From positions 15,380 through 79,379 of the forward strand of contig CAZZFJ010000001.1 in the NCBI GenBank assembly GCA_964653415.1: DNA of 64,000 nt, written 5' to 3'. A program made the translations under genes and the position numbers. Position 1 is the stretch's first letter, and every line of letters starts with the position of its first letter. Positions 12,390 through 59,960 of the stretch are shown one piece after another. The notes under the pieces were generated by a model, which saw only the letters and a program-made list of their open reading frames with translations, ran no database searches and was not told the DNA's origin. Source of the DNA: an uncultured Erysipelothrix sp. (GTDB lineage Bacteria; Bacillota_I; Bacilli_A; Erysipelotrichales; Erysipelotrichaceae).

Positions 12390-12600
12390 TCTCCTTAATT
12401 AAAAATAAAAAAGGCGCCCTAATATAGGACGCCTTAGCGTGGTACCACCTAAATTCATGATGTAAAACATCACGCACTTAATTCATCGATAACGAAATGA
12501 CCCGGTTTCTCTAACTATTCAAGAAACTAACTCACACGTGATATTCGATAAGTGTCGCTCTTCAGTTACACCAACCCTGAAGTCTCTATGAAACTACTTC
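12390..12600 (-). promoter_or_regulatory. T-box riboswitch (Ile specifier) upstream of ileS
   Basis: Minus strand has the stem I distal motif GAGACTTCAGGGTTGGTGTAACTGAAG, specifier ATC before GAA, T-box AATTTAGGTGGTACCACG and terminator AAGGCGTCCTATATTAGGGCGCCTT-T run. Confidence 0.92.
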
Positions 12601-13067
12601 TTAAAGAATGTGTCGTGATCTTTGTTAAATATCATTAAATTTTTGACAGCCTGAGCATCTACACCCGATAAAATATGAGCCAATTGGTGTGTTTTAAACT
12701 CCAATTTTTTCGTAATATCATAGTTATAGGATGCACTTGATTCCATTTCTTGAAGTACATTGTCGGCTGATGCAAGGACTTCCTGGATAATTAAATCAGC
12801 ATTTCTATATGCCTTGTTTATTATAGCACTTGCTTCTTGGTTTGCAAGTTCTATACGTTCCATAATGGCATCTTCTTTTTCCAACAAAGCGTCATATTTT
12901 TCTTCATAACTACGCTTCGCATAATCCAGCTGACTTACCAAGTGGGTAACTTGAGTTCTTAAACTGTTATTTTCATTAATAAGTTGTGCAATATCGGTTT
13001 CAAGACGTTGACGATTTTTTTCTTGATCCAGTATACTTTGACGTTTACCTGGTACGCTTTTCAGCAT
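12594..13067 (-). CDS. divIVA: DivIVA-like coiled-coil cell division protein (divergent N-terminus)
   Basis: Sits between sepF and ileS, the canonical divIVA slot. Coiled-coil with an ANQEASAIINKAYRNADLII pattern like the DivIVA C-terminal half. Confidence 0.6.
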   Translation of the reverse strand: MLKSVPGKRQSILDQEKNRQRLETDIAQLINENNSLRTQVTHLVSQLDYAKRSYEEKYDALLEKEDAIMERIELANQEASAIINKAYRNADLIIQEVLASADNVLQEMESSASYNYDITKKLEFKTHQLAHILSGVDAQAVKNLMIFNKDHDTFFKK

Positions 13068-16250: not shown

Positions 16251-16957
16251 TATAGTTTCTCCTTAACACGTTGGTAAAATTCTTCTCTTGAGCCACTCCA
16301 ATCTGAAACGTCATTATTATTTCTTGAAATTAGATAATCAGTGATAATCCAACCATCCATTCCCAGCTCCTTTGCAACCATGTCCTCTTCCATATCATTT
16401 CCAATCATTAAGCAATCCCTTGCCTCTAAATTATTGAATCTTAAGACTTCTTCAAAATATTTTTTTTGTGGCTTGGTTGCAGTATGAATTTCAAAATTTG
16501 AAACGAAATCAAAATCTTCAAGATTTAAACCCGAAAACTCTATACGCTTCTCAACTGCAATAGGAGGAAACATAGGGTTAGTTGCAACAATTAATCGATA
16601 ACCCCGACTCTTTAAATATTCTATAGTTTTGACCATCTTTGAATTATCATCAAAACCAGATTGTAAAATACTGAATTCATTTCTATAATATTCATCAAAC
16701 TTCGGTTCTAACACACTCGCCAGCTCATCCCCTAACAAACTTTTAAAGTGACTAAAAAATATTTGGTCGTTTGTGATATTGCTTGAATCTCTCATCATTA
16801 CCTGTAAAGCATCCATCATCGAATGCATCAGTGCTCTTGGTTCGATGTAGGGAGCAAGTTTTTGTCCCAAGGTGCTCAAGTATAGCTTTTCAAAATCATC
16901 ATTATCCATCGGCATCAAAGTACCGTCTAAATCAAATAATATGGCTTTATACTTCAT
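16250..16957 (-). CDS. HAD family hydrolase
   Basis: Motif I FDLDGTL, ATNP, KP and motif IV MIGNDMEED. Start at ATG 16957 after AAGGAGG. Confidence 0.88.
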   Translation of the reverse strand: MKYKAILFDLDGTLMPMDNDDFEKLYLSTLGQKLAPYIEPRALMHSMMDALQVMMRDSSNITNDQIFFSHFKSLLGDELASVLEPKFDEYYRNEFSILQSGFDDNSKMVKTIEYLKSRGYRLIVATNPMFPPIAVEKRIEFSGLNLEDFDFVSNFEIHTATKPQKKYFEEVLRFNNLEARDCLMIGNDMEEDMVAKELGMDGWIITDYLISRNNNDVSDWSGSREEFYQRVKEKL

Positions 16958-17065
16958 AATGACCTCCTTTATTTCGTATATTATACCATAAGACCCATTC
17001 CATATTTTCATAAAATTTCAAAATATATTGAAACTTCTTTCACGAATGTTTTTCACCTTCTCTAA

Positions 17066-17094
17066 TTGCACTAGAGGGCTTTAATTGATACAAT
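17066..17094 (+). promoter_or_regulatory. Sigma-A promoter for the mgtA leader and gene
   Basis: TTGCAC (17066-17071), 17-nt spacer, extended -10 TGaTACAAT (17086-17094). Gives a leader of about 145 nt. Confidence 0.65.
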
Positions 17095-17122
17095 GATGAA
17101 AGGAAGGATGTGGTGATATTAT

Positions 17123-17206
17123 ATGAAGCCTCGAAGTTGCAGTTCAGAGAAATGCGGACAGTTTCTCGACGAAGACCCTTGTAGTATCACAAGGAGCATC
17201 GCATAA
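17123..17206 (+). CDS. Putative mgtA leader peptide MKPRSCSSEKCGQFLDEDPCSITRSIA (alternative overlapping leader ORF at GTG 17113-17184)
   Basis: GGTGA 7 nt before ATG 17123. Lies wholly within the mgtA 5' leader and overlaps two hairpins. Confidence 0.35.
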   Translation: MKPRSCSSEKCGQFLDEDPCSITRSIA

Positions 17207-17246
17207 GAGATACTGACCATAATTATTATGGAAGGAGAATATACTT

Positions 17247-19826
17247 ATGAAACTAGATATTCTAGAAACCCTAAGACTCAATCAAGATGAACTCTTTGAA
17301 TTAGTCGAGGGAAAACAAGGCGGATTCACATCCGAAGAAGCCGCCACACAATTAGAAAAATTCGGACCCAACGCGATCACAAAAGCGAAAAAACCAAATC
17401 CACTCATTGGATTTGTAAACGTTTTGATTAACCCTTTTAACTTAGTTCTCATTGTGGTGATTATCATCACATTTATTAATGATATTTTAATTGTAAAAGA
17501 AAAAGATTTTGTTACCATCGGAATCCTCTTATTGGTTGTTTTAGCTTCCACTCTGGTATCCTTCATCCAAGATGAAAGATCCAGTGCAGCTGGTGAAAAA
17601 TTACTGGACATGGTATCCAATACCACAGCCGTATTACGGGATGGAAAATTCATAGAAGTTGCGATTAATGACATTGTTTTGGGTGATATCATACGTTTAT
17701 CAGCCGGAGATATTATCCCAGCTGATTTACGGATAATATCAGCCAAGGACCTCTTCTTATCTCAAGCAACATTAACTGGAGAATCCCTGCCTATTGAGAA
17801 ATGGGTGAGCTTAGATGATGAACTTTTAGACCAAGAAACTGATTATACAAACTTAGCACTCATGGGGACAAACGTTGTCTCTGGTGCAGGAAGTGGTGTT
17901 GTCATTCGCCGTGGGGATGATTCTTATTTAGGAAGCATGGCCAAGTCCCTATCAGAAATCGAAAGTACCAATAGTTTTGAAAACAGCATTAGTATTATTT
18001 CAAAACTTCTATTTAAATTGATGTTGGTGATGCTACCTATTATCTTCTTAATTAATGGACTCCTAAAAAAAGACTTTGTTTCAGCATTTATATTTGCTTT
18101 AACTGTTGCGGTAGGGCTAACACCTGAAATGTTACCCGTTGCCCTAACCAGTGGTTTATCACGCGGGGCCATCAACATGGCCAAACATAAAACAATCATT
18201 AAATCACAATCATCGATTTCAACTTTTGGAGAAATGGATATTCTATGTACTGACAAAACAGGTACAATTACTCAAGATGAAATCATCTTAGAGCGATATA
18301 TGGATGTTAAAGGTGATGATGATATGCGTATACTTAGACACGCTTATCTAAACTCCTACTTCCAAAGTGGACTAAAAAATTTAATCGACTTAGCTATCAT
18401 TACCCGTGCTGAATCATATAATATGCAAGATTTAGTCAATTACTATGATGTAGTAGATGAAATTCCATTTGATTTTGCTCGACGCAGAATGAGTGTTATC
18501 CTAGAAGATCAAAACGGAAAACGACAATTAATTACTAAAGGAGCTGTCGAAGAGATTCTAGAGAACTCTAAATATATCGACCGCGATGGTGAAGTCATGT
18601 TACTGGATGATACCGTACGTGCTGAAGCCCTTGAAGTATATTCCCAGCATAATCATGATGGTTTACGAATGATTGCAGTTGCACAAAAAAATGACATTCC
18701 TGAAGAGCATGAGTTTTCAATTGAAGATGAAAATGACCTGGTGCTCATTGGATTCATTGGATTTTTAGACCCACCAAAAGAAAGTGCCAAACCAACAATC
18801 GAAAGTTTACACGATCATGGTGTTGAAGTAGTGGTCATTACAGGCGACTCCCTAGGAGTAGCGAAAAAAGTTTGTTCTAAAGTTGGAATTGAAACAGATA
18901 TAACCTATTTAGGAACTGAGATTGAAATGATGAGTGATGAAGAACTTCAAGAAATCATCCCAACATGTCAACTTTACGCCAAAATATCACCTACCCAAAA
19001 ACAAAGAATTGTACAGGCCTATCAAAACCGAGGCCATATCGTTGGATTCTTGGGTGATGGTATTAATGACTCCCTAGCATTAGGTCAAGCAGATGTTGGT
19101 ATTTCTGTAGATACAGCTGTAGATATCGCCAAAGAAAGTGCTGATATCATTCTTTTAGAAAAAGACTTACGCGTACTTGAAGCTGGAATCCTTGAAGGTA
19201 GAAAAACAATAGTGAACATGATTAAATATCTCGAACTTGCTGTTAGTGGTAACTTTGGGAATATGATATCTGTTATTGTTGCAAGTATCTTCTTGCCCTT
19301 TTTACCCCTATTACCTGTTCATATTTTAGTTCAAAATTTAATTTCTGATGTAGCGCAGATCGGTATTCCTTTTGATAACGTTGAGGAATCAGAAGTCTTA
19401 AGACCCAAGCGATTAGATAGTAACTCACTCAAACACTTCATGAAAGTATTTGGTCCTTTGAGTTCTATCTTCGATATCCTCTGTTTTGTAGTTCTATGGT
19501 TTGTCTTAAAAATTCAAACACCAGAACAAGCCATCATTTTCCAAGTATTCTGGTTCACATTTGGAATCATTTCACAATCCTTGGTCATCTATGTCATTCG
19601 TACTAAAAAACCTTTATCAATCAAAAACAAACCCTCTACAACGATGGTCATAACCACCTTGTCATCTGTAGTTGCAACACTCTTAATTGTTACAACTCGT
19701 CTTTCAGAAACAGTAGATTTAATTATGATTGATCCCATTCACTTACTGTGGGTATTTGGAATTGTTGCATTGTACTTAACAACAACAATTATCGTCAAAA
19801 AATTTACTTGGACCCCATTAGATTAA
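17247..19826 (+). CDS. mgtA: Magnesium-translocating P-type ATPase (P3B)
   Basis: TGES, VGLTPEMLP, phosphorylation motif LCTDKTGT, YFQSGLKNLID, DEIPFDFARRRMS, FLDPPK, GDGIND and SGNFGNMIS. Confidence 0.93.
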   Translation: MKLDILETLRLNQDELFELVEGKQGGFTSEEAATQLEKFGPNAITKAKKPNPLIGFVNVLINPFNLVLIVVIIITFINDILIVKEKDFVTIGILLLVVLASTLVSFIQDERSSAAGEKLLDMVSNTTAVLRDGKFIEVAINDIVLGDIIRLSAGDIIPADLRIISAKDLFLSQATLTGESLPIEKWVSLDDELLDQETDYTNLALMGTNVVSGAGSGVVIRRGDDSYLGSMAKSLSEIESTNSFENSISIISKLLFKLMLVMLPIIFLINGLLKKDFVSAFIFALTVAVGLTPEMLPVALTSGLSRGAINMAKHKTIIKSQSSISTFGEMDILCTDKTGTITQDEIILERYMDVKGDDDMRILRHAYLNSYFQSGLKNLIDLAIITRAESYNMQDLVNYYDVVDEIPFDFARRRMSVILEDQNGKRQLITKGAVEEILENSKYIDRDGEVMLLDDTVRAEALEVYSQHNHDGLRMIAVAQKNDIPEEHEFSIEDENDLVLIGFIGFLDPPKESAKPTIESLHDHGVEVVVITGDSLGVAKKVCSKVGIETDITYLGTEIEMMSDEELQEIIPTCQLYAKISPTQKQRIVQAYQNRGHIVGFLGDGINDSLALGQADVGISVDTAVDIAKESADIILLEKDLRVLEAGILEGRKTIVNMIKYLELAVSGNFGNMISVIVASIFLPFLPLLPVHILVQNLISDVAQIGIPFDNVEESEVLRPKRLDSNSLKHFMKVFGPLSSIFDILCFVVLWFVLKIQTPEQAIIFQVFWFTFGIISQSLVIYVIRTKKPLSIKNKPSTTMVITTLSSVVATLLIVTTRLSETVDLIMIDPIHLLWVFGIVALYLTTTIIVKKFTWTPLD

Positions 19827-36734: not shown

Positions 36735-37002
36735 GTACAAATAAAAAAGTGCCACCGCAACAAGGACGATAAAAGTCTACCGCGGTACCACCTATATTCT
36801 CAATATCATTGAGCTCTTAAACTTTTAACGCAAGTAAAACGCTTCTCTCTACCAGTTCAAAAGAAGAGCTCCAAGATGAGTTCAATAGATTCCGCTTGTT
36901 GATTTACACCTAACATCAACTCTCTAGAAAGCTTTGTCTATCTACTAGTTCTTTTCATCGCTTATACTTCTATATATTAATTGTTTATTGAAGTCTTGTC
37001 AA
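36735..37002 (-). promoter_or_regulatory. Promoter and T-box riboswitch (Leu) upstream of leuS
   Basis: TTGACA-17-TAATAT, AGTA, stem I GAGAGTTGATGTTAGGTGTAAATCAAC, a Leu codon (CTT or TTG) in GAACTCATCTTGGAG, T-box AATATAGGTGGTACCGCG and a downstream hairpin with T run. Confidence 0.88.
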
Positions 37003-59751: not shown

Positions 59752-59801
59752 ATGGGTAAATAACTTTATTAAAGGATTCTTTTAAGCTATAATATAAAAG
59801 A

Positions 59802-59960
59802 ATACTTCAGGGCAGGGTGTAATTCCCGACCGGCGGTAAACCCCGCGAACCTTTGGGTTGAATCAGTGAAATTCTGGTGGCGACAGTAAAGTCTGGATGG
59901 AAGAAGTTTTTTTTCATGTCTCCTGGAGTGTATCATTTTTTTGAAACTAGGAGGTTTTTT
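59802..59960 (+). ncRNA. FMN riboswitch (RFN element) with expression platform
   Basis: CTTCAGGGCAGGGTGTAATTCCCGACCGGCGGT...CAGTGAAATTCTG...CGACAGTAAAGTCTGGATGGAAGAAG. Downstream hairpin CTCCTGG/CTAGGAG covers the RBS and is followed by a T run. Confidence 0.95.

Follow-up and report, generated by a model that had tools for sequence, protein, structure and literature searches.

To our knowledge, experimental proof that magnesium can be sensed by a ribosome translating a leader peptide comes from enterobacteria alone, where the mgtL, corL, and mgtCBR leader open reading frames (ORFs) are involved. In Gram-positive bacteria, magnesium sensing is generally attributed to the M-box. Intrinsic ribosome destabilization was reportedly described by Chadani et al. 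in 2017. The element considered here lies upstream of mgtA, a gene for a magnesium-translocating P-type ATPase, in a 64,000-nucleotide (nt) stretch of DNA from an uncultured member of the genus Erysipelothrix, of the Bacillota (contig CAZZFJ010000001.1, positions 15,380 to 79,379; the whole stretch is referred to as the window). Comparison of this leader with those of its relatives makes it likely that a conserved, translated leader-peptide switch precedes mgtA. Literature searches turned up no paper on an mgtA leader peptide in Erysipelothrix or any other Firmicute.

The closest described systems are the mgtA and corA leaders of E. coli and Salmonella. In these leaders, stems A and B together form the OFF state and stem C forms the ON state, with stem A sequestering the Shine–Dalgarno (SD) sequence of the upstream ORF (uORF) and enclosing that uORF (PMC11552253). 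Co-transcriptional loading of the ribosome is needed, and inefficient elongation at acidic and proline codons leads to the ON state (PMC11552253). Destabilization of the ribosome by Asp, Glu, and Pro residues is strongest with short nascent chains and is favored by small residues, whereas bulky residues work against it, as does increasing chain length up to a plateau near 30 residues (bioRxiv 10.1101/2021.02.02.429294). MgtL begins with M-E-P-D-P, so that the critical residues directly follow the initiator Met, and abortion occurs within the first six residues (bioRxiv 10.1101/2021.02.02.429294).

A preliminary description of the window, made from the letters alone, had placed a promoter, three short ORFs, and three hairpins in the mgtA leader, and all of these are present at the positions it gave. 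It had left open which of the three uORFs is translated. Comparison among relatives points to the third, uORF3, whose main features are as follows:

17123–17206, + strand: uORF3, 27 codons plus stop, MKPRSCSSEKCGQFLDEDPCSITRSIA; the conserved leader ORF.
17168–17179, + strand: motif codons GAC GAA GAC CCT, encoding Asp-Glu-Asp-Pro (residues 16–19); invariant alignment columns and presumed site of ribosome pausing or abortion.

Orthologous uORF3 peptides of 24–35 amino acids (aa) are found before mgtA in relatives, with GGTGG or GGAGGTG at SD distance. They begin with M-[KEN]-x-[RQ]-[SC]-C, and every one of them contains a [DE][DE]DP motif at residues 14–20, usually at 16–19 or 17–20. The C-terminal part of the peptide is variable in both length and sequence. 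In the motif codons of 16 leaders, the first and second positions have an entropy of 0 bits, versus 1.49, 1.68, 0.70, and 1.01 bits at position 3 of the four codons, and the invariant in-frame columns of the DNA alignment (A1) are G71 A72, G74 A75, G77 A78, and C80 C81. Zero entropy at the first two positions combined with a free third position is, as judged from the aligned codons, a signature of selection at the peptide level. All 16 leaders keep the uORF3 frame free of stops from start to motif, whereas stops interrupt the remaining two frames in 13 and 15 of them, respectively. The start codon and SD spacing of uORF3 are retained in all leaders.

A profile hidden Markov model (HMM) of the uORF3 peptide family was searched in six frames against 401 genomes of the family and 399 genomes of the class (218 genera). 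Exactly one significant match per genome was obtained in 24 of 27 Erysipelothrix genomes (E-values of 7e-9 to 5e-14), located directly 5′ of mgtA wherever the contigs permit a check. The acidic-proline leader peptide noticed in the single sequence is thus borne out across the genus. The HMM also matches one genome of a neighboring genus (G287, MDTDGSRRKRSLILTEDPYLSSGFCLPL), in the same register of helix P1, which is described below. Beyond Erysipelothrix and this genome, nothing scored below E = 0.006 among the 401 family genomes, and nothing outside Erysipelothrix was matched among the 399 genomes of the class. In one metagenome-assembled genome (G001; 88% complete, 2% contamination), two near-identical copies of the leader peptide occur on contigs C232 and C37, which may represent strain heterogeneity or contamination. 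A 29-aa form of uORF3 is annotated as “hypothetical protein” in records of E. rhusiopathiae, E. tonsillarum, and E. amsterdamensis; this small ORF, which is at present either so named or absent from annotation, should be called a leader peptide.

The other two candidate frames were read from the sequence as follows:

17108–17116, + strand: uORF1, ATG-TGG-TGA.
17113–17184, + strand: uORF2, with a GTG start.

Neither was retained, since uORF1 is confined to the species of the window and the one most closely related to it, and the frame of uORF2 closes after 5–20 codons in other species.

The part of the peptide that precedes the motif has an unusual composition. Cys makes up 12.5% of residues 2–15 in the uORF peptides of leaders L002–L027, compared to 0.5% in the long ORFs of the window, and Ser and Cys together account for 34%. 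This bias may stem from a constraint on the RNA (the conserved AGTTGC), from promotion of ribosome destabilization by small residues, or from metal binding. In all, 12–15 residues precede the motif, of which 44% are small versus 25% in the background.

The second line of evidence is structural and concerns three helices (P1, P2, and P3) formed by five strands:

17106–17124, + strand: strand A, comprising the uORF SD, spacer, and start codon; 5′ strand of P1 (RNAduplex and cognate test).
17180–17201, + strand: strand B, beginning at the first base after the Pro codon; 3′ strand of P1 (RNAduplex and cognate test).
17155–17167, + strand: strand U, CGGACAGTTTCTC, within uORF codons 11–15; 5′ strand of P2 (covariation and cognate test).
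17202–17224, + strand: strand T, the anti-SD strand common to P2 and P3, containing the TAA stop of the uORF (17204–17206) and CCATAA (17217–17222; cognate tests).
17225–17249, + strand: strand D, the mgtA ribosome-binding site (RBS), with TTATGG (17226–17231), the SD, and the ATG at 17247; 3′ strand of P3 (cognate test).

The helices were tested by comparing duplex energies for each leader's own segments (cognate) with those for segments swapped among 14 lineages (non-cognate). The swap controls for composition, and it was adopted since methods based on fixed columns failed. RNAalifold returned no structure from a MAFFT alignment of 18 leaders, because the helix registers shift by 0–3 nt among lineages; with six close relatives it recovered only six P1 pairs and no double changes.

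P1, formed by strands A and B, has an RNAduplex energy of −15.4 kcal/mol in the window and −11.5 to −20.5 kcal/mol across 18 of 18 leaders. Its cognate mean is −14.9 versus −11.5 kcal/mol for non-cognate pairs (p = 0.0002). Paired changes are plentiful and include GGTGATAT/AGTATCAC, GGTGGTA/TACCACC, GAGGTG/CACCTC, GGTGGCAA/TTGCCATC, TGATACC/GGTATCA, and GGGAGGT/ACCTCCC. When windows were slid along the leader, the sole cognate partner of strand A was the segment from Pro+3 to Pro+18 (−14.1 versus −10.4, p = 0.0002), and P1 was recovered in three hold-out leaders that had not been used in its derivation.

P2 (U:T) shows a cognate value of −9.7 versus −7.7 (p = 0.003). The sliding windows gave Pro−24 to Pro−9 as the sole cognate partner of strand T within the uORF (−10.2 versus −5.3, p = 0.0002), and the covarying pairs are GGACAG/CTGTCC, GAATGTT/AACATTC, GAGTGCG/TGCACTC, GAGTGTC/GACATTC, and GTGAACGA/TTGTTCAT. 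Strand U mimics the mgtA RBS region, visibly so in several species. P3 (T:D) has a cognate value of −11.5 versus −7.0 (p = 0.0002). In the window, CATAAG at 17202–17207 also pairs with CTTATG at 17244–17249, thereby covering the mgtA start codon. The uORF stop codon lies inside or beside strand T in all 15 leaders examined for it. No significant cognate effect was found for nine other segment pairs (A:T, A:C, B:D, B:T, U:M, U:B, A:M, M:D, and U:D).

The conserved structure therefore consists of a set of helices other than that drawn in the preliminary description. One of the three hairpins listed there, CCATAA/TTATGG, is conserved and forms the core of P3, whereas GAGAAA/TTTCTC and CCTTGT/ACAAGG are not conserved. 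A pseudoknot between AGTATC and GATACT, also suggested there, failed to hold up: it is not conserved, and the B:T cognate test gave p = 0.97. Taken as a whole, the mgtA leader has no folding advantage over shuffled sequence (z = −1.28); its structural signal is covariation, not folding energy.

Two properties of this arrangement bear on how it could work. Since the U and B windows adjoin the motif, the 12-nt motif is directly flanked by both regulatory strands. In addition, P2 uses the same strand T as P3 and, in the order A-U-B-T, crosses P1. P2 is thus incompatible with both P1 and P3, and the leader is predicted to adopt either P1 plus P3, in which both start sites are hidden, or P2, in which both are open.

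From these elements a mechanism can be proposed, and it is held with moderate confidence: the leader would act as a switch on mgtA translation initiation, with magnesium as the signal and low Mg2+ leading to the ON state. In the absence of a ribosome, or upon fast and complete translation of the uORF, the RNA would settle as P1 plus P3 and mgtA would be off. When magnesium is scarce, a ribosome would linger or fall apart at the acidic-proline motif, as in MgtL. While held up on the motif or immediately beyond it, the ribosome would cover strand B, so that the P1 lock could not close. Most of U and all of T would stay free and P2 could form, chiefly before the mgtA RBS has been transcribed, and the RBS would then emerge unpaired. 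Ribosomes that arrive at the uORF stop would also melt P3 briefly. The output is probably translational control of mgtA, since the conserved helix P3 covers both its SD and its start codon. We infer magnesium as the signal from the identity of the gene, the motif, and analogy with described leaders, and the direction of control is likewise a matter of inference. In effect, the leader would fulfill at this mgtA the function of the M-box at related mgtA genes, and the ribosome would be its sensor.

The effect of a ribosome on the leader was modeled by ensemble folding with the ribosome footprint masked. Means over 15 leaders, in base pairs (bp) per helix and as the unpaired value of the SD, are given below:

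Free leader, no ribosome: P1 8.5 bp, P2 2.0 bp, P3 10.4 bp; SD unpaired 0.31.
Ribosome at the uORF start: P1 0 bp, P2 6.0 bp, P3 6.6 bp; SD unpaired 0.41.
Peptidyl site (P-site) on Pro: P1 0.8 bp, P2 0.4 bp, P3 11.9 bp; SD unpaired 0.28.
P-site two codons after Pro: P1 0.1 bp, P2 3.2 bp, P3 9.7 bp; SD unpaired 0.34.
Ribosome at the uORF stop: P1 8.2 bp, P2 0.0 bp, P3 2.6 bp; SD unpaired 0.64.

In transcripts that end at strand T, before the RBS, P2 of at least 4 bp formed in 11 of 15 leaders with no ribosome. The count was 14 of 15 when a ribosome occupied the start and 10 of 15 when its P-site was one codon past Pro.

Several observations weigh against a low-magnesium ON switch of this kind. 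At equilibrium, a ribosome on the motif favors P3 over P2 (11.9 versus 0.4 bp), and the motif-masked folds, taken alone, thus imply that stalling is OFF and complete translation is ON, the reverse of MgtL logic. The simplest geometry, in which termination inside strand T opens P3, gives this same opposite sign. Formation of P2 during a stall requires U and T to pair around a parked ribosome, and we know of no precedent for this. In addition, mgtA is found without the uORF in three Erysipelothrix species (leaders L008, L016, and L018, in genomes G023, G014, and G003), where the leader peptide is lost or replaced. Finally, the residue directly before the motif is usually a bulky L, F, or I, and the motif is internal; in E. 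coli, an internal position and preceding bulky residues weaken intrinsic ribosome destabilization (bioRxiv 10.1101/2021.02.02.429294). The three leaders that lack the uORF have the same type of promoter and are short; a GGGAT.../...ATCCC hairpin is seen in two of them, and their upstream gene differs.

The folding results lend themselves to a rival explanation, direct coupling with reversed logic, in which a ribosome would melt P3 only by getting past the motif and terminating within strand T, so that mgtA would be ON when magnesium is sufficient and off upon a stall or abortion, with P1 merely limiting the loading of the uORF. The position of the uORF stop in or next to the anti-SD strand in 15 of 15 leaders agrees with it, a stop-codon ribosome raises the unpaired SD from 0.31 to 0.64 while a ribosome on the motif leaves P3 intact, and the start of the CNNM exporter gene of the window is overlapped by an acidic uORF, as would also be consistent with coupling. 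Its direction, however, is wrong for an importer of the TIGR01524 type whose homologs and paralog carry the M-box, which turns off at high Mg2+, and it is opposite to the experimentally established logic of mgtL and corL (PMC11552253). It would also leave the covarying P2 without a role and the tight placement of U and B against the motif unexplained, and it is regarded as unlikely. A further possibility is that the frame is incidental, or serves only to reset the structure, and that the P1/P2/P3 switch itself answers Mg2+, some other ligand, or folding kinetics. Three covarying helices could be read in this way, as could a leader from another genus (L069), which has a P1-like helix together with a uORF that lacks the acidic motif; PMC11552253, moreover, cites a proposal that the leader RNA of Salmonella mgtA senses Mg2+ directly. 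Such a sensor would not account for the period-3 conservation at the motif, the preservation of the open frame, start codon, and SD spacing in all leaders, or the single peptide HMM match per genome, and the leader neither matches an Rfam family nor folds better than its shuffles (z = −1.28). An RNA-only sensor is accordingly judged quite improbable.

Two other explanations turn on the peptide itself. Four consecutive codons of regulatory type, invariant at the amino-acid level, could in principle report the charging of transfer RNA (tRNA), the status of elongation factor P (EF-P) or ABCF proteins, or osmotic stress through Asp, Glu, and Pro codons, with no part for magnesium, and passages of PMC11552253 cite the importance of the mgtL proline codons for Salmonella mgtA regulation. 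The target is nevertheless a magnesium pump, unconnected to Asp, Glu, or Pro metabolism, and there is a single Pro codon; dependence on these codons would in any case be compatible with the proposed switch. A sensor of amino-acid or translation stress is therefore a doubtful reading, of about the same low likelihood as the RNA-only sensor. Lower still stands a trans-acting role for the 27-aa, Cys-rich, acidic peptide as a metal binder or as an MgtA partner comparable to MgtS, MgtR, or MgtU. The Cys content before the motif (12.5% versus 0.5% in the background) and the annotation of the ORF as a hypothetical protein in some genomes would suit a functional small protein, but its C-terminal part varies in length and sequence, it lacks a hydrophobic segment such as the known MgtA, MgtB, and MgtC partners possess, and the helices that occlude its start site run through its own frame. 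Such a role is very improbable.

Under the favored reading, a ribosome-sensed switch that turns mgtA on at low Mg2+, the Erysipelothrix leader can be compared with MgtL and corL in some detail. In both cases the gene family is the same, its leader contains a uORF with acidic and proline codons that is conserved among relatives, a stem covers the SD of the uORF and encloses it (stem A there and P1 here), two exclusive folds exist (stems A plus B versus C there; P1 plus P3 versus P2 here, as computed), and the ribosome is the presumed sensor. The preliminary description had called the uORFs MgtL-like, and this likeness stands insofar as an mgtA leader peptide carries an acidic-proline motif; it does not extend to the N-terminal M-E-P-D-P arrangement, since the motif is internal, at residues 16–19 of the window peptide versus 2–5 in MgtL. 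There is no sequence or Rfam similarity between the two leaders. The ON helix of Erysipelothrix begins 5′ of the motif, which places the motif in its loop. The enterobacterial leader acts through Rho-dependent transcription termination, as in Salmonella, whereas the leader described here is predicted to act by sequestering the SD and start codon of mgtA. The host is Gram-positive (Bacillota), and the element is limited to one genus plus the one genome of a neighboring genus. By analogy, then, the element would be similar to MgtL/mgtA in its working, and it falls outside that family.

The leader also resembles the erm and cat attenuators and the MifM-yidC2 and SecM-secA systems, in that a paused ribosome would re-pair the leader and free a downstream SD at the translational level and with no terminator. 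P3 sequesters the mgtA SD, and strand U of the leader ORF can take the shared strand T, as computed. A ribosome stalled in one of those systems sits on the 5′ arm of the structure responsible, directly or through one downstream exchange, for hiding the second SD. In Erysipelothrix, by contrast, the footprint would fall on the 3′ strand of the helix that masks the SD of the uORF itself, with the rescuing strand U located 5′ of the ribosome; nor is an antibiotic or secretion signal involved. With regard to footprint geometry, folds with a ribosome on the motif keep P3, and P2 is allowed when the P-site is one codon later or when the transcript lacks strand D. The classical trp-type arrangement of a terminator hairpin and U-run opposed by an antiterminator was not found in the mgtA leader. 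No intrinsic terminator occurs on the + strand between 16800 and 17400, and none was seen in the leaders of relatives.

A bolder version of the proposal would make the paused ribosome the “ligand” of the switch, sitting in the loop of the ON helix. Its footprint would fill the ~34 nt between U and T and block P1, and the flanking strands would pair around it, a geometry undescribed for any leader peptide. The device would then have an origin separate from that of MgtL, in a Gram-positive genus where it works alongside a paralog under M-box control, and it may read ribosome-bound rather than free Mg2+. This version is put forward tentatively and is more probably wrong than right by a wide measure. 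The internal motif, exactly flanked by regulatory strands, raises the question of whether intrinsic destabilization or true arrest can act 16 residues into a nascent chain.

The preliminary description held that mgtA of the window has its leader in place of an M-box. No match at gathering score was obtained at the mgtA leader with 4227 Rfam models, and at E ≤ 10 the region 16950–17350 yielded nothing beyond two chance-level matches, so that the absence of M-box and yybP-ykoY sequences claimed earlier is upheld. Specifically, the M-box (RF00380, threshold of 44 bits) was found neither in the window, nor in the leader at E ≤ 10, nor in the whole 1.49-megabase (Mb) genome, and neither the yybP-ykoY Mn2+ riboswitch nor any other Rfam cis-regulator matched the mgtA leader. 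The only Rfam matches in the window are two T-boxes, one flavin mononucleotide (FMN) riboswitch, and one tRNA. The T-box leaders and FMN riboswitch, at 12422–12631 (− strand), 36759–36967 (− strand), and 59799–59912 (+ strand), score well above their gathering thresholds.

For context, 50 regions upstream of mgtA homologs were sampled, covering further genera of the order as well as the paralog in Erysipelothrix. The M-box is present in 21 of these 50, at 89–115 bits, and its carriers include the closest outgroup mgtA (52% identity) and the mgtA paralog of E. tonsillarum. None of the 50 has a uORF with [DE][DE][DE]P. Within Erysipelothrix, the same search as was applied to the window genome found one M-box each in 12 of 28 genomes (88–139 bits), and in the eight genomes for which the position of the paralog is listed, it lies 250–800 nt 5′ of the mgtA paralog. 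With an M-box on the paralog and the uORF on the ortholog, several genomes hold M-box-mgtA2 and uORF-mgtA1 together. Judged by these positions, the uORF leader takes the place that the M-box has on related mgtA genes, as had been supposed. The two elements share this place, before mgtA homologs across the order and before the Erysipelothrix paralog, and both presumably respond to magnesium status. They differ in that the M-box is a 169-nt metal-binding aptamer without a reading frame. The genus is cultivable and includes E. rhusiopathiae, and the same gene family bears either an M-box or a leader peptide, with some genomes having both on two paralogs. The occurrence of M-box and uORF leaders within one gene family thus provides a natural experiment on free Mg2+ versus the state of the translating ribosome.

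The remaining features of the locus are the promoter and the gene itself:

17066–17094, + strand: promoter, with a −35 TTGCAC (17066–17071), a 17-nt spacer, and an extended −10 TGaTACAAT (17086–17094), read from the sequence.
17247–19826, + strand: mgtA, magnesium-translocating P-type ATPase, 859 aa (TIGR01524 equivalog, Pfam).

Within the promoter, the −10 TACAAT occupies 17089–17094 and the TG of the extended −10 occupies 17086–17087, and the transcript is predicted from this to start near 17101. The pattern TTGnnn-17-TGnTAnnnT recurs 22–29 nt 5′ of the uORF ATG in 16 of 16 leaders, which places strand A at the extreme 5′ end of the predicted transcript. The promoter was overlooked by a consensus scan because its −35 agrees at only 3 of 6 positions. 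The leader is ~146 nt long, and the mgtA SD (GGAAGGAG, 17230–17237) lies 9 nt 5′ of the ATG at 17247. The gene 5′ of mgtA encodes a HAD hydrolase in divergent orientation, and the 235-nt spacer between the two is thus a true promoter-leader region.

The MgtA protein scores 943.8 bits against the TIGR01524 equivalog (cut-off of 610.75) and contains the Pfam domains E1-E2_ATPase, Cation_ATPase_N, Cation_ATPase_C, and Hydrolase. Orthologous mgtA genes with 70–85% identity occur in 24 of 24 sampled Erysipelothrix genomes, and the best homologs outside the genus share ≤52% identity. The genome of the window has mgtA1 only, one gene of the CorA family, and no MgtE. Tandem mgtA paralogs on the same strand were seen on contig C23 of genome G052 and contig C15 of genome G040.

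A second acidic leader frame occurs in the window, at a putative exporter gene of the CNNM/CorC type:

2419–2487, − strand: CNNM/CorC acidic uORF, 22 codons, MEDTEDCRKLAYESEEYIWVFK, overlapping the start of the CNNM exporter gene (1112–2434, − strand) by 16 nt.

Acidic leader frames are therefore found on both a magnesium importer and a magnesium exporter of the same genome. Like the mgtA uORF, this is an acidic short frame at a magnesium-transport gene for which ribosome stability is the likely signal. It differs in having an acidic N-terminus (MEDTED), in overlapping the exporter start, as in direct coupling, and in sharing no sequence with the mgtA uORF. E. coli ybeX/corC, with its N-terminal acidic sequence, can be grouped with it for comparison. 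A link between the two leaders of the window is plausible, although they have no sequence in common and opposite logic would be needed.

Other solutions are seen at M-box-free mgtA homologs in other genera of the family (L069 of G174, L102 of G222, L101 of G331, L098 of G379, and L054 of G151), which have different short frames upstream. These include MEPSCNGRRL..., with a P1-like helix over its start codon, and MEDSPRRLNL..., followed by a terminator-like hairpin and U-run. Further examples are MRKSS...APDPDS..., MTTDGSS..., and MGEQSDSY.... The MEPSC uORF of G174 was not found at the relatives of its gene, which instead show two-component regulators or plain leaders. In leaders L070, L076, L081, and L100, also from other genera, a gene for an OmpR-type response regulator (...GYKFN...) ends directly 5′ of mgtA paralogs, which suggests that a third way of regulating mgtA in the order is two-component control of the PhoP-like kind. 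L100 combines the response-regulator gene with a TEDP uORF.

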